From positions 1 to 44,160 of the forward strand of contig JAJYJQ010000004.1 of the NCBI GenBank assembly GCA_021789225.1: a DNA stretch of 44,160 nt, in the 5' to 3' direction. The DNA is from a bacterium (lineage in GTDB: Bacteria; Patescibacteriota; Minisyncoccia; Phycocordibacterales; Phycocordibacteraceae). Every line of letters begins with the position of its first letter. Position 1 is the first letter of the stretch. Below, piece by piece: positions 493 to 28,758 of this stretch. The translations under genes and the position numbers were made by a program. The notes beneath the pieces are model-generated. The model searched no databases and was not told the DNA's origin. It was given only the letters and a program-made list of their open reading frames with translations.

Positions 493-1863
493 TTACTTCT
501 CGCTGGCCATTTTGAATTGTCGGAGCGCCCGCCGGTTTGCGTCGTCCAGAAGCTTGTCCCCCTCCGGCGAGGGATGCAGCATCGCTTGCGCTACTGCATG
601 GAAGGCGCTTTCGCTCCGTATCGACATCGGGTTATACTCACCTGCTCCCAATGGTTGCGTGAGCTCGGCCTCGGCGCGCAATCCGAAGTGCTCCTGCATC
701 CCACGATTCCATTCGAAATTGTGCGCAAGCGTCCAGAGGAGGACTCCCTCTACCGGCACGCCCTCTCTACTCGCCACATCAATATGTCTCATGGTTTCCA
801 GTATCCACCACGGGCGTCGCAGATCCCGCTCATCAGAGAAACCAAATTCGGTAACCCAAAGCGGCTTGCCCGGATAACGCTGGTGCATGCGCTCGAGCGT
901 CTTGCGGATGCCTTCGGGATACACGTCTCCCCAGTCGAGATATCTACCGTACGTATCCGGGCGTTTGCCGCGCCACAGATCATCCATCCAGCAGTAGTAC
1001 TGCAGCCCGACGAAGTCGGTGTGCGTTCCGTCGCGTTCGAATTTGTCCGCGACAAAATGCTCGATGCCTCGGAAAAACGAGCTCCCGAACCCTTGGTGAT
1101 ACTGCCAGTTGTGGCCGATGCCGACGTGCACACTCCACCCTTTACGGTACGCCATTCCTTTCAGTAGCTCGTACGCAATGTCGTGCGCCGCGACAAGCTT
1201 TTGCAAAACGATCAATGCAATGTCGACCCTCCCTTTCCGATGCGGCGGGAAGATGCCTATGACATTGCCGTGTCCGATGACTGCCATCGGCTCGTTGATG
1301 GTCATAAAGTGGCGCACAAGCCCGTTGGCGATCAGCCGGTCCTGCTCCTTCGCGTCGAGCTGCATGTCTTGCAGCACCGCACGAACCTTGTCGTCGTCCG
1401 CAAGAAATCGCGTGACGTTGTCGACAAGGAAATGGAAGTAACCCCTCGCGCCTCTAAGCTCCCATGCATTCTGCACGATCTCGCCATTCTTGCCGCTGAT
1501 ACCTGTGCTGTCGAACGGCATGGTGTAATGATTGAGCGTCAGAAACGGCTCGATGCCGTGCAGACGCAGTAAGGCCATCTGCTGCACGTACCGTTTCATC
1601 ACGCATTCATCGAACGTGCCTGGTCGCAGCACAAGATCAGGCTCCAGCGAGAACCGGAACATGTTCACGCCAAGCCTTTCCAGGAAAGCTACATAATCCG
1701 GAAAATGTTTCGACAATTGCGGCAAGGTTTCCTTCGCGAGCCTCCGTCTGGACACCCAATAGTTCCAGTCAGACGCGAGCTTGAAAGAACCCTTTTCATC
1801 TCTTGGCAGCGGATCCGATTGGAATGTTGACGTCCCTACTCCGACATACTGTATGCGTTTCAT
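493..1863 (-). CDS. Glycoside hydrolase family 1 (beta-glucosidase/beta-glycosidase-like)
   Basis: GH1 motifs: N-terminal G.GTSTFQ, FRFSLE, TLNHYTMP, acid/base TINEP, nucleophile VTEFG, WTLAHNFEW; AAGGAG SD. Confidence 0.9.
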   Translation of the reverse strand: MKRIQYVGVGTSTFQSDPLPRDEKGSFKLASDWNYWVSRRRLAKETLPQLSKHFPDYVAFLERLGVNMFRFSLEPDLVLRPGTFDECVMKRYVQQMALLRLHGIEPFLTLNHYTMPFDSTGISGKNGEIVQNAWELRGARGYFHFLVDNVTRFLADDDKVRAVLQDMQLDAKEQDRLIANGLVRHFMTINEPMAVIGHGNVIGIFPPHRKGRVDIALIVLQKLVAAHDIAYELLKGMAYRKGWSVHVGIGHNWQYHQGFGSSFFRGIEHFVADKFERDGTHTDFVGLQYYCWMDDLWRGKRPDTYGRYLDWGDVYPEGIRKTLERMHQRYPGKPLWVTEFGFSDERDLRRPWWILETMRHIDVASREGVPVEGVLLWTLAHNFEWNRGMQEHFGLRAEAELTQPLGAGEYNPMSIRSESAFHAVAQAMLHPSPEGDKLLDDANRRALRQFKMASEK

Positions 1864-2028
1864 CGGCGAACTCCTTTTTGAAGGTGCAATTCATAAGTCG
1901 CACTGGTTGCAGCCCTGGTTCAGTCCGGTGAGACAGTACCATTTCTGGGGTGAGATATCGAGGAAGTGCCCTGCGTGAGCAAGGCTACGCGAAACCGTGT
2001 ACTAAGGTGTTAGACACATCAGTACAAA

Positions 2029-2052
2029 GACCTCGGTATCTCTACCGAGGTC
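2029..2052 (-). terminator. Hairpin/intrinsic terminator downstream of the 2249..2653 gene
   Basis: GACCTCGGTA-tctc-TACCGAGGTC, followed by TTT on the minus strand. Confidence 0.5.
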
Positions 2053-2073
2053 AGTTACTTTAAAATTCTCTTA

Positions 2074-2235
2074 GAGCCCGTTAAAAAACCCACCCTGCCT
2101 GCACCGCCGATTTTCGGGCTGCGGCGCACTCGTTTCGTCCTCTATGTGCCACAAGCACATATCGGACTCCAACTCGACGCCTCGCCTCGAAAATCGGCGG
2201 CTCGGCTGGGGTACCGCGGGTTGTTTAACGGGCTC
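2074..2235. mobile_element. 162-bp MITE-like palindromic element (family A)
   Basis: 18-bp terminal inverted repeats GAGCCCGTTAAA(A/C)AACCC (17/18 match), TTA on both flanks, nested inner inverted repeats CCGCCGATTTTCG/CGAAAATCGGCGG and TATGTGC/GCACATA. Confidence 0.75.
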
Positions 2236-2248
2236 TTAGATAGAGCCG

Positions 2249-2653
2249 CTAGGCGGCCTGTTGCCGATAGTGCTCCCGAAGGATATTTGCTTCCTTGATC
2301 TCCATCGACACGAGGCCTTTGACAAAGAAGCCAATACCCATGTCCCAGTATGCTCTGGAGAGCGGAGCGATCCACGTAAGGATGAACTCCGATTTCTGGT
2401 GATGCTGAATCAACCGCTCGAGGGCAGGCATGGCCCGACTGGACTCACCGCTCTCAATCGACGATTTGATTTCGCCCCACCAAAAAATCTTCGGCCTCAG
2501 CTGAGCAAGCCTCAATGAGGCCCACGTTTTCCTGAAACCAAAACCTCTTTGCTGCATCTCCTCATACTTGCTCGCTTTGTTCACGAGCTCTTGGAGCATA
2601 TACCCCACGCTCCAAAGAACATGCTGCCGGATCTTTTCGATATCTTCGGCCAT
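2249..2653 (-). CDS. Hypothetical protein (134 aa)
   Basis: ATG with GGAGG SD; no recognisable motif. Confidence 0.6.
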   Translation of the reverse strand: MAEDIEKIRQHVLWSVGYMLQELVNKASKYEEMQQRGFGFRKTWASLRLAQLRPKIFWWGEIKSSIESGESSRAMPALERLIQHHQKSEFILTWIAPLSRAYWDMGIGFFVKGLVSMEIKEANILREHYRQQAA

Positions 2654-18444: not shown

Positions 18445-18595
18445 CCCGCAACATTGCATCCTTGTGCTGTTTATGTCATACTCACGATAACTCGCAGTGT
18501 CTCTTGAGCTTTGCGGCCCTCGTGCCCCAGAAGCGTTCGGTACCCGGCGAGGGTTATCAAGTTCACAGCCATTTTCAAGCAATGCTTTCACAATG

Positions 18596-18698
18596 GTGCG
18601 CTTCTGAATTTCGAGCGAGAAACGAGTCGGAACGCGAAGTGTATCCGAGATACATTGAGCGTGAGACGAGGTTTCGCAGCCGAAATTCAGAAGCGCAC
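18596..18698. repeat. 103-bp palindromic element (family A) upstream of the RRM gene
   Basis: Perfect 18-bp inverted repeat GTGCGCTTCTGAATTTCG/CGAAATTCAGAAGCGCAC enclosing the TGTATC-cga-GATACA hairpin. Confidence 0.8.
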
Positions 18699-18736
18699 GT
18701 GGAATGATTGATTGAGAAGGGCGTTACTACGCATCC

Positions 18737-25749: not shown

Positions 25750-28700
25750 CTATTGCTCCAGCAACGCGAGGAGGGCGTCGTAGGCAGAGGGGGCGCCGCG
25801 GCGCCAGGTGAGGGAGCGCAGCTCGCGGACGACCGTGTCTACATCGGCGAGCGCGGCCTCCTGCTCCGCCTCCCCCACCGGCACGAGCACTTGTTTTATA
25901 CCTGCATCCGAAATGCCCAGCAGCTCGGCACCGGCGACGGGCTCTTTGTTTGCCGCAAGCATCGCGGCGTAGAGCGCGAGCTGGCGTGCGTAGCCTTCGT
26001 TTTTTGCCGAGACGCTGCTGCCTGTTTTGAAATCTGCCACCACGAGCGCACCGCCGTTTTTAAACACCACGTCGATCTTGCCGCCAAACGTCACCGGCGC
26101 GCCCTCCACCACGCGCGTCAGCGAGAATGCTTTTTCAATGTGCTCAGGCGCGCCCAACGCTGAGAGCTCTGGCAGCGCTGCGGCAAACGCTGCGCGCGCA
26201 TCGCGCTTGAGTTTCTCGAAGGTCGCGTCGCGCGGGAGGAGTGAGCGGTCAAAGGAGCGCGCGAGCGTAGCGAGCGCGTCTTCTTCGCTTGCGCCCGAGA
26301 GCGCTGCGGCGAGTGCGGCGTGCAGCGCGTTGCCGTAGACCAAGGGCGCCGTGGGCGGCTCCTGGATCCTGAGCACGCGCCGCGCGAAAAATGTCGCTGG
26401 CGACTCCAAGTATTCGTTTACGGCCGAAGGCGAAAGCCCTTCCGTTTCGAGATAGCGCTCGATGAGCGCGCGAACTTTCTCCGGCGCGGAAACGGTCGTA
26501 TGCAAAAGCGGCAGCGCCTCGCTCTCGACCGGCGTTTCGGGCAAGCCAGCTGGCAGCAGGCTCGTCGGCAGCCGGTCGCGCCCCTCGGCGCTCGCGCGAG
26601 CATAGGAAAGATACGCATGATCCTTAGCACGCGTGAGCGCCACATAGAAAAGCCGGCGCGCATCATCAAGCGACTGTTTGTTTTCAAACGGCGAAGGCAG
26701 CAGCGCGGCGCGACCGCCCTTCTCCCACGCGTTTTCCGTGCAGTCAGGAATGAGCACGTACCGAAACTCCATGCCTTTGGCTTTGTGCGCCGTGATGACC
26801 GTCACAAACCCTTCCCGCTCTGTGACAGACACTTTCACCGGCGAGAGGCCGTGTTCACGCGCTCGCGAGAGCGCCGCAAACGCTTCGGCAAATGTCGCCC
26901 CCTCGGTGAGACGCGCCGCAGATTCCAAATGCTCCATGAGCTTGCGCACGAGTGCGATATCGTCCACGTGCTCGGCATGCGAGAGGAAGTAGTCGCGTGC
27001 GCCACTCTCGGCAAAGACATAGGAGAAAGTCGCGATGGGTGTTTCGCTACGCGCTTTCTGCACGCACGTCGTGATGACGCGCGCGGTCTCGGGGTATGCG
27101 CGTGCGAGTGCACTCGTGAGGTCGCGGTCGCTCGTGGTGCGCAAAAATACCAAGAGCTCCGCAATGTTGGACACCGGATGTCCAACATGCCACCAGGGGG
27201 CGAGGAGAGCTTCGCGGAGGCTGCCGAGCGCGGTCGGGTCAGCCACGTACTGCATGAGCGCCATAAGAGCACGCATGAGTGGCCGGCCTGTGAGCGAGAG
27301 GTCGCCCGCACGCAAGACAGGCAGACCGCGCGCAATGAGCACGTCGGCAAAAAGATCGGCTGTGTCGTTCGTGCGCGCGATGACCGCGATCTCGTGCGGC
27401 GCGGCACCCTCCGCGATGAGCTGCTCGATGAGCACCGCTGCTTTCGCGCGCTCGTCGAGCGGGTCGAGTGCCTCGATACGCGAGACTCGCTCGCGCACGC
27501 CGTCTTCCCCATTTCCGCGATGTGCCGCAAGCGGCGCGTGGTCGCCCGTCAAGGGGCCTCTCCCAAAAATAACCCCCAAATCGCCCTCACCCAAAGCGTG
27601 GCGGCTGCGAGGCGCTGTTTCCGGCTGCGAGTCCGAACGGCTCGCACTCGACGTATCTCGATACGCCTCATGCTGCGCCGCGGGCTCTCGCTCGGAAACA
27701 GCGCCTCTCGCTTCGCCATTATTTTTGGGAGAGACCCCCGCCACCACTTCATGTGCTGCGTCGAGAATGTGCTGGTACGAACGGAACGAGGACGTGAGTG
27801 CAATCACGGTCGCGCGCGGGAAAAGCTCCGTGAACGCTTTGAATGCCCCGAGGTCAGCGCCTTGGAAGCGGTAGATCGCCTGCTTTTCATCACCCACCAC
27901 AAAAAGATTCGGATGGTCGTCATATGCGAAAAGTTCAAGCAGACGGTGCTGGAGCGCGTTTGCGTCTTGATGCTCATCCGCGAGGATGTACTGATAGCGC
28001 TCCTGCAGGTCGCTCCTCAGCCCCTCATCCGCCGCGATGCGTGCGATAACACTCGCGAGCATGTCGGAAAAATCCGAGAGGTGGCGCTCATCTTTGAGTG
28101 CCTCGTAGCGCTCGAATACGCGCACTGCCTCCTCCACCTTATCGAAACGCGCGAGCTTCTCCTGCCCCGCTTTTGTGAGCTCGCCCGCGTGTTCGCCGCG
28201 CTTGTAGCGGAGTGATTCGTCAGCCCCGAGCGCTTCGGCGGCTTCTTTCCCCCACGCGCGATACGCATCTAGTGACATCGCCTCGCGTGTGAGCGTGTCG
28301 TACAGGGAGCGCAAGTCGCGCAGATAGGTGTAGGGTGCTTTGGCGGGTCGGAGCGTATCGAGCTCGGCAGTGTCTATTGCTTCGCGCAGGAGGAGCGTCT
28401 GCTCCACATCGCCCATGAGCCGCCGGTCGGCTTCAGCAGCAAACGCATCCGGATACTCCGCGCGCACGAGCTCTGCAAAGCCGTGAAAAGTGGTAATGGT
28501 CACCTTGCGCGCCGTCTCCTCGCCGATGAGCAGCGCAAGCCGCCGCCGCATCGTGCGCGCAGCCGAGTCGGTGAATGTGAGCGCGAGGACCGCGTCGGGC
28601 TTCGCCTGGGTAACGCGCAAGATGTTTGCGATGCGAAGCGTCAGGATGTGGGTCTTCCCCGTGCCCGGGCCCGCGAGCACCATCACCGGCCCCTCCACCG

Positions 28701-28758
28701 TATCCACCGCCTGCCGCTGCTCCTTCGTGAGCCGCGCGTATGCCGAATCAAAATCCAT
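25750..28758 (-). CDS. UvrD/PcrA-family helicase with C-terminal PD-(D/E)XK nuclease, carrying a 62-aa palindromic insertion
   Basis: AGPGTGKT, TFHGF, DEHQD, VGDEKQAIYRFQGA, FRS, TAHKAKGMEF, RRLFYVALTRA; nuclease GKID...DFKTG...QLALY. Confidence 0.92.
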   Translation of the reverse strand: MDFDSAYARLTKEQRQAVDTVEGPVMVLAGPGTGKTHILTLRIANILRVTQAKPDAVLALTFTDSAARTMRRRLALLIGEETARKVTITTFHGFAELVRAEYPDAFAAEADRRLMGDVEQTLLLREAIDTAELDTLRPAKAPYTYLRDLRSLYDTLTREAMSLDAYRAWGKEAAEALGADESLRYKRGEHAGELTKAGQEKLARFDKVEEAVRVFERYEALKDERHLSDFSDMLASVIARIAADEGLRSDLQERYQYILADEHQDANALQHRLLELFAYDDHPNLFVVGDEKQAIYRFQGADLGAFKAFTELFPRATVIALTSSFRSYQHILDAAHEVVAGVSPKNNGEARGAVSEREPAAQHEAYRDTSSASRSDSQPETAPRSRHALGEGDLGVIFGRGPLTGDHAPLAAHRGNGEDGVRERVSRIEALDPLDERAKAAVLIEQLIAEGAAPHEIAVIARTNDTADLFADVLIARGLPVLRAGDLSLTGRPLMRALMALMQYVADPTALGSLREALLAPWWHVGHPVSNIAELLVFLRTTSDRDLTSALARAYPETARVITTCVQKARSETPIATFSYVFAESGARDYFLSHAEHVDDIALVRKLMEHLESAARLTEGATFAEAFAALSRAREHGLSPVKVSVTEREGFVTVITAHKAKGMEFRYVLIPDCTENAWEKGGRAALLPSPFENKQSLDDARRLFYVALTRAKDHAYLSYARASAEGRDRLPTSLLPAGLPETPVESEALPLLHTTVSAPEKVRALIERYLETEGLSPSAVNEYLESPATFFARRVLRIQEPPTAPLVYGNALHAALAAALSGASEEDALATLARSFDRSLLPRDATFEKLKRDARAAFAAALPELSALGAPEHIEKAFSLTRVVEGAPVTFGGKIDVVFKNGGALVVADFKTGSSVSAKNEGYARQLALYAAMLAANKEPVAGAELLGISDAGIKQVLVPVGEAEQEAALADVDTVVRELRSLTWRRGAPSAYDALLALLEQ
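27553..27738. mobile_element. 186-bp palindromic element (family A) inserted in-frame in the UvrD gene
   Basis: 20-bp terminal inverted repeats GGGG(C/T)CTCTCCCAAAAATAA (19/20), inner GAGGCGCTGTTTCCG/CGGAAACAGCGCCTC; exactly 62 codons with no stop. Confidence 0.85.

Follow-up and report, generated by a model that had tools for sequence, protein, structure and literature searches.

How does the gene of a core DNA repair enzyme come to hold a long palindrome within its coding sequence and remain open from start to stop? The question is raised by positions 27553-27738 (minus strand) of contig JAJYJQ010000004.1, in the 44,160-nt stretch that was analyzed here as a whole (the window), where a 186-nt palindromic element that resembles a MITE (miniature inverted-repeat transposable element) provides residues 341-402 of a UvrD/PcrA-type helicase. 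We consider it probable that a copy of a small MITE-like repeat family entered a length-variable loop of this helicase in frame and has been kept as a tolerated, translated insert. The genomes related to that of the window (G000) are Patescibacteria, Paceibacteria, or Kaiserbacteria, in keeping with the candidate phyla radiation (CPR) host that a preliminary description of the locus had thought probable.

An in-frame palindrome in a helicase gene

The host gene (25750-28758, minus strand) is intact and encodes 1002 amino acids. Its product joins the N- and C-terminal helicase domains of a superfamily 1 (SF1A) UvrD/PcrA helicase (PF00580, UvrD-helicase, 5.6e-57; PF13361, UvrD_C, 2.2e-23) to a C-terminal PD-(D/E)XK nuclease domain (PF12705, PDDEXK_1, 3.8e-24), and its matches among structure chains are PcrA, UvrD, Rep, the mycobacterial UvrD/REP helicase (6ppu_B), and AddA. 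Both ends of the element fall on codon boundaries, and the frame across it reads GVSPKNNGEARG...GVIFGRGP with no stop. The preliminary description had reported a 186-bp element with 20-bp terminal inverted repeats (19/20), set on codon boundaries and free of stops; its coordinates and anatomy held throughout. Its view of a mobile-looking palindromic repeat that adds 62 amino acids in frame is likewise borne out.

The element is organized as nested stems. Its left (27553-27572) and right (27719-27738) terminal inverted repeats, 20 nt each, are 95% complementary (19/20 positions); on the plus strand of the window, the outer 12 nt of the left arm depart from the family consensus AGAACCnGTCTCAAAAATAA, and the right arm compensates for these changes. 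A variable spacer (27573-27599) is present on one side only and makes the element asymmetric, hence orientable. Further inward, a long stem-loop with an apical hairpin (27609-27707; arms 27609-27635 and 27681-27707) forms the core common to other copies, and ATTATTTTT follows directly after this inner stem on the plus strand. In the whole window, two matches to the terminal-repeat pattern are seen, compared with 0.00 expected from 100 shuffles. Folded as RNA in the helicase sense (the minus strand), the 186 nt form a nearly continuous hairpin of -114.5 kcal/mol, whereas shuffled sequences average -72.6 kcal/mol (z = -9.99) and none of 200 is as stable. The helicase sense strand is the one with the more stable hairpin (strand S). 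A simple terminator scan of positions 27300-28000, whose rules leave out long bulged stems, returned 0 sites.

The insert is absent from orthologs and lies in a variable loop

Alignments with the helicases of the two closest genomes (G011 and G012; 73-87% protein identity) break at residue 340 and resume at residue 404, one codon on. The empty sites read GCG GAG ACG and GCT AAT ACG, whereas the window has GCG, the 186 nt, and then TTG ACG; the TTG codon (Leu403; 27550-27552, minus strand) directly after the insert corresponds to the one codon that varies at the empty site, GAG or AAT. The 62-residue segment is missing from all 19 other members of a 20-ortholog alignment of related genomes and from 160 of 160 loci (80 from metagenomes and 80 from reference genomes), where full-coverage matches measure 582-621 nt compared with 780 nt. 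In a 103-sequence alignment, the other 102 orthologs hold only 0-15 residues in the insert columns. These three sets overlap; in each of them, the 62 residues are absent outside the lineage of the window, as had been anticipated. The insertion site is thus a loop that naturally varies in length (0-15 residues), a hot spot for indels.

Comparison with solved structures places the insert directly after the motif-IV helix in domain 2A: the PcrA alignment ends at residue 340 of the query (PcrA 301) and restarts at residue 427 (PcrA 323), in agreement with the site after UvrD/PcrA motif IV proposed earlier. An AlphaFold2 model (mean predicted local distance difference test, pLDDT, 86.2; predicted template modeling score, pTM, 0.71) folds the remainder of the protein confidently and renders residues 346-404 as coil with pLDDT 26-32 (below 50), between a helix (329-340) and a strand (425-430). 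The insert is thus predicted to be a disordered loop of 62 residues, consistent with a surface-loop site. The earlier notion that new protein sequence is being created is not borne out in this respect, the added residues being predicted to be disordered.

A second lineage carries the same insert

An 8337-nt contig, built by a second assembler from the probable source run and not independent of the source, bridges both junctions with 0 differences. A different study contributes contigs of 4744 and 2441 nt (runs X2 and X3) that also span both junctions, covering positions 27251-28050 with 89 differences and 0 gaps; among the 40 differences listed, 28 lie at third codon positions, and the change is synonymous in 25 of the 35 codons concerned. 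A protein of equal length from a separately deposited metagenome-assembled genome (MAG), P0002, which falls in the same 90% cluster, is identical at 961 of 1001 residues (96%) with no gap. Its insert matches at 62/62 residues, whereas 40 of 939 aligned residues differ outside it. Because P0002 shares the ten replacements implied by the X2 and X3 contigs, the three represent one lineage and provide one independent confirmation.

The insertion thus predates the split of these two insert-bearing lineages, which are ~11% apart in DNA in this region and 4% apart in protein, with no indel; this divergence pattern indicates that the helicase gene has been under purifying selection since the element arrived.

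The element belongs to a family of MITE-like hairpin repeats

The inner ~135 nt of the element recur, with 85% identity, on contig C34 of the same genome, between two divergent genes. In a BLAST search of 222 genomes of the genus, eight genomes besides G000 proved to have clear copies and a ninth (G193) a weaker one; G178 gave a 52-nt partial match only. Seventeen copies from nine genomes could be aligned and have terminal repeats in common, their ends reading (TA)GAACCnGTCTCAAAAATAA ... TTATTTTTGAGACnGGTTC(TA) around the one-sided variable spacer and the long inner hairpin. The terminal consensus AGAACCnGTCTCAAAAATAA / TTATTTTTGAGACnGGTTCT is found in 15 of the 17; two G000 copies are divergent but self-complementary at their ends. 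A covariance model built from this alignment, on which the helicase copy scores 177.8 bits (E 1.6e-40; model R1), detects seven copies in G000 and ten in G016, and in the window it locates two intergenic copies missed by BLAST: a diverged one at 2073-2236 (plus strand; 68 bits, E 9e-14) and the most diverged at 18578-18728 (minus strand; 57.1 bits, E 4e-11). A scan for the terminal repeat itself fares differently, since the exact 20-nt repeat of the helicase copy has no further match in the genome (782 kb) even with four mismatches allowed, yet the model finds seven copies there. Across related genomes, the model places the family in 11 of 61, representing 5 of the 25 genera of the order and including four genera outside the genus; in G011 and G012, whose helicase site is empty, it finds no family copy at E ≤ 1e-4.

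G081 has a pair of identical copies and G114 a pair with 2 differing positions, in each genome within different flanks, a pattern that has the look of recent mobility. TA stands on both flanks of 11 of 16 copies and is a candidate target-site duplication; this dinucleotide is its own complement. Family members are smaller than ~500 bp and carry no transposase gene, share terminal inverted repeats, occupy multiple unrelated loci, and are polymorphic in presence, the helicase site being occupied in G000 and in the P0002 lineage but empty in the remaining orthologs, G011 and G012 included. On these features, the family consists of low-copy MITE-like hairpin repeats. A 71-nt mini element with both terminal repeats and a short stem (56.6 bits) was also seen in G016 (C9:7762-7832; L059:763-833).

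We inspected the surroundings of 16 other copies in related genomes and 6 others in G000, with the C34 copy in both sets, by means of a codon-usage score and Pfam scans. At all 21 other copies, real genes lie beside the element and not across it, and the frames that span these elements have no Pfam match; the helicase copy is therefore the only intragenic one among the 22 checked. A pseudouridine synthase gene, for instance, ends 2 nt before one copy, and a NusB gene starts 14 nt after another. For two neighboring open reading frames (ORFs) in G000, the predicted starts are non-ATG codons that lie 38 and 72 nt into an element, and these starts are uncertain. Many copies adjoin a stop codon. 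At six loci (L022, L025, L027, L028, L048, and L060), the stop codon of the neighbor overlaps or abuts the element end, TAG being formed from the terminal TA and a G, which suggests that in these GC-rich genomes the family may insert into stop codons, at their TA. A profile of the encoded peptide searched against 5.8 billion protein clusters (proteins of 110-2000 residues) matched the window's own cluster only, within the limited sensitivity of such a search. The family is thus an intergenic repeat that entered a gene once, with no habit of colonizing ORFs.

Copy lengths (151-188 nt) cover all residues modulo 3 with no bias to multiples of 3, contrary to what would be expected if the family resembled Rickettsia palindromic elements (RPEs) in its length pattern. 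Stop-free frames are uncommon across the family (19 of 102) and frequent in the helicase copy (4 of 6). Five other aligned copies (174-186 nt; L045, L046, L024, L027, and L050) are stop-free in the helicase frame, and the peptide encoded by three of these, RTGLKNNGLAR...VIFETGS, is similar. Should TA be duplicated at the target, the gain would be 186 nt for an element of 184 nt and 174 nt for one of 172 nt, each a multiple of three. An open, in-frame insertion into an already length-variable loop would then amount to a modest coincidence filtered by selection.

Search for a mobilizing enzyme

Pairs of family ends farther apart than ~190-200 nt were not found in the 222 genomes, although MAGs often miss copies of insertion sequences (ISs). 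Models of IS630 and IS30 transposases gave no consistent match in the five carrier genomes searched, and an IS630 partner was rejected, as that model had no match above its cut-off in any of the five. A solo family end in G000 (C9:8053-8074) lies close to an IS30-family transposase gene (NF033563, E 1.4e-50). An IS30-family partner was nevertheless rejected: the IS on C9 ends ~95 nt from the solo end and, by comparison with the C14 copy, has different inverted repeats; furthermore, solo family ends in four other genomes have no IS30-family transposase within 2 kb.

G000 has at least two copies of this IS30-family IS, which is ~1.1 kb long (C9:8170-9244 and C14:6311-7385; 87% identity), and the IS also reaches the ends of C18 and C33. 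The C14 copy is apparently frameshifted near its 3′ end, and contig breaks coincide with the 5′ end of the IS. At C9:8053-8113, the solo family end lies 12 nt from a stretch like the left inverted repeat of the IS30-family element, both just outside the IS; this arrangement may represent a remnant of composite nature, or it may point to insertion targeted to ends.

Homologues of Y1_Tnp (Y1/HUH transposases), 220-260 residues long and often in several copies per genome, occur in 37 of 61 genomes, with no clear association with the repeat family (9 of 11 carriers versus 28 of 50 noncarriers). One of them, a 231-residue protein encoded on contig C28 of G000 (1776-2471, minus strand), starts 308 nt from a family copy (C28:2779-2966). 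G016, the genome with the most copies, has no Y1_Tnp match, and its assembly is only 87% complete.

Origin of the insert and competing explanations

We think that the most probable history is the following. A copy of a small, nonautonomous hairpin family would have transposed into the surface loop that follows the motif-IV helix of domain 2A, the gain of 186 nt corresponding to a 184-nt element plus a duplicated TA. Entry in a stop-free frame would have left the gene open, and the insert would simply be transcribed and translated as a disordered loop of 62 residues that the enzyme tolerates, presumably with its activity retained. The event is placed after divergence from the two closest reference genomes but ahead of the separation from the second insert-bearing lineage. 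From then on, the helicase has evolved under purifying selection and the element has kept a near-perfect hairpin, as all family members do.

Several observations weigh against this history. No transposase with matching ends was found, either by the search for ends in 222 genomes or by the IS630 and IS30 models in five carriers. The helicase copy lacks TA flanks and its outer terminal repeats are off consensus, so that TA-duplicating transposition is only its presumed mode of entry. A hairpin of -114 kcal/mol in the mRNA could hinder expression. The contigs of runs X2 and X3 and the protein P0002 count as a single confirmation, not as three. Finally, if the disordered loop drifted freely, it should have changed faster than the rest of the protein; since the insert is fully conserved in P0002 while residues elsewhere differ, something constrains it, be it the hairpin, the peptide, or both.

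This last point leads to the alternative that survives best, according to which the hairpin itself is functional. It would be a structured module of RNA or single-stranded DNA (ssDNA), selected on one strand, which in the helicase mRNA would act in cis, for instance by slowing translation or by serving as a site for RNase III or for decay, with the 62 residues as a by-product. Covariation speaks strongly in its favor. In the 17-copy alignment, 95.2% of cells are paired, compared with 81.9% in shuffles, and 35 of 60 stem pairs have changed on both sides, compared with 17.3 in shuffles; neither value is reached by any of 500 shuffles, and slid controls pair at most at 46%, statistics that are to be read with the copies being kin rather than independent. 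The helicase copy follows the same rule, as 10 of the 13 pairs that distinguish it from the nearest copy, and 16 of the 18 that distinguish it from the consensus of the other 15, differ on both sides. Mismatches are strand asymmetric: in the plus orientation of the window, there are 27 A.C versus 4 G.U, and the former become G.U wobbles on the opposite (helicase sense) strand, which is the more stable one in 17/17 aligned copies and in 7/7 copies of the genome under study. We read this as a constraint that probably acts on one strand in its single-stranded state, be it as RNA or as a DNA copying intermediate. The invariant unpaired motifs of the family, its occurrence in 5 of the 25 genera of the order, and the protein-level identity of the insert in P0002 fit a functional module as well. 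Yet the orientation of copies relative to neighboring genes is mixed, which provides no consistent transcript context; the family is patchy both in distribution (11 of 61 genomes) and in copy number; the near-identity of copies at separate loci has the look of mobility; and no Rfam family overlaps positions 27553-27738 at E values up to 10. Moreover, arm-to-arm correction during hairpin-mediated transposition could mimic selection on the hairpin, giving the same compensation with no function in cis. We consequently hold a function of the hairpin itself to be unlikely. The same low probability attaches to a broader version, in which these repeats would be order-wide hairpin modules of CPR bacteria, with one strand under selection as RNA or ssDNA, perhaps the first such system moved by Y1/HUH homologues in the manner of doublets of repetitive extragenic palindromic sequences (REPINs), and selection would maintain the helicase hairpin for tuning the expression of the repair enzyme.

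A second alternative is that the insertion killed the helicase and that a young pseudogene merely looks intact. An extra 62 residues in the motor core, beside motif IV of domain 2A, could indeed impair function. However, the 1002 codons are open, all residues that the 103-sequence alignment shows as invariant are kept in the insert-bearing helicase, the site is a natural indel hot spot, and the divergence between the two lineages, concentrated at third positions (28/40 of the listed differences) and devoid of indels, is far lower in protein than in DNA. A dead gene is accordingly very improbable.

Slightly less probable still is a removal of the insert after transcription or translation, as an intron, as an intein, or by ribosomal bypassing, that would yield a mature helicase lacking these residues. 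The extreme stability of the hairpin might in principle stall ribosomes or draw processing enzymes. Self-splicing introns are far larger than 186 nt, and inteins are defined by Cys, Ser, or Thr nucleophiles and a His-Asn end. The insert begins with Gly, ends with Gly-Pro, and is followed by Leu, with none of these nucleophiles and no His-Asn end; together with the Rfam result, which covers intron families, these end residues exclude inteins and introns. Matching take-off and landing codons and direct repeats are likewise missing from the flanks. An open frame of exactly 62 codons, identical in the second lineage, is moreover needed by translation and not by removal. The preliminary description had offered removal at the RNA level as an option, which thus finds no support in a search that returned no Rfam match over the element.

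A repeat misjoined into the gene during assembly is hardly credible, for even though the element is a repeat, and read depth rises over its inner part as other copies map there, the contigs from both runs of the other study bridge the two junctions with 0 gaps, the second-assembler contig does so with 0 differences, and the P0002 protein has the same length and insert.

Comparison with known systems

CPR genomes are tiny and streamlined, and little has been written on their small mobile repeats; a full-text literature search for MITEs in Patescibacteria or the CPR came back without a relevant paper. In-frame insertion of a MITE is a known principle, here apparently described for the first time in CPR bacteria. 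The case shows a repeat family spread across an order, protein sequence added to a core repair enzyme, and persistence of the addition under purifying selection. Its strand-asymmetric, compensated hairpin offers a handle on how such elements are recognized or copied. For annotation, the family accounts for odd long hairpins at gene ends and for one odd helicase loop.

Among bacterial MITEs, Correia and Nezha elements have TA flanks and are linked to IS630/Tc1-mariner-type transposases. The repeats described here resemble them in their small size, terminal inverted repeats, mostly TA-flanked ends, and whole-length hairpin, and also in being mostly intergenic, abutting gene ends, and diverging little within a genome. 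They differ in their very low copy number (1 to about 10 per genome), in the lack of an above-cut-off IS630 transposase in the five carriers, and in the lack of a longer element with matching ends in the 222 genomes.

REPs and REPINs are hairpin-forming repeats moved by RAYT (Y1/HUH) transposases, REPINs being doublets of 20-40-nt REPs. Compensatory evolution of the hairpin is common to both systems, the strand asymmetry reported here would fit recognition as ssDNA, and Y1_Tnp genes are common in these genomes, one being located 308 nt from the C28 copy. In contrast to a REP doublet of 20-40-nt units, the present element measures 150-190 nt and has true terminal inverted repeats; Y1_Tnp genes, besides, occur in 28 of 50 element-free genomes as well as in 9 of 11 carriers, and none was matched in G016.

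RPEs have been described, in a 2024 review (PMC10969869), as the extreme case of in-frame repeat insertion, with 44 integrations in genes of Rickettsia conorii. The likeness proposed in the preliminary description holds for the helicase copy taken by itself: as in the RPEs of that review, a palindromic repeat of ~100-190 nt with no known transposase occupies a housekeeping gene in frame and adds a peptide where the fold allows it. It does not extend to the habit of the family. RPEs habitually enter ORFs, as the review has it, whereas here one of 22 copies is intragenic and no other protein was found with the peptide. The host, too, is a CPR bacterium and not a Rickettsia, and the likeness is drawn from the description of RPEs rather than from their sequences.

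The closest behavioral match is provided by ERIC, BOX, QMITE1, and the Anabaena MITEs, mainly intergenic repeats that are occasionally fused in frame with an ORF; for these, the same review calls in-frame fusions of intragenic MITEs with host ORFs "not unusual" (PMC10969869). Their hosts are other bacteria and their sequences are unrelated to those of the family described here, in which the fused copy has in addition persisted, apparently under purifying selection on its host gene, in two lineages.

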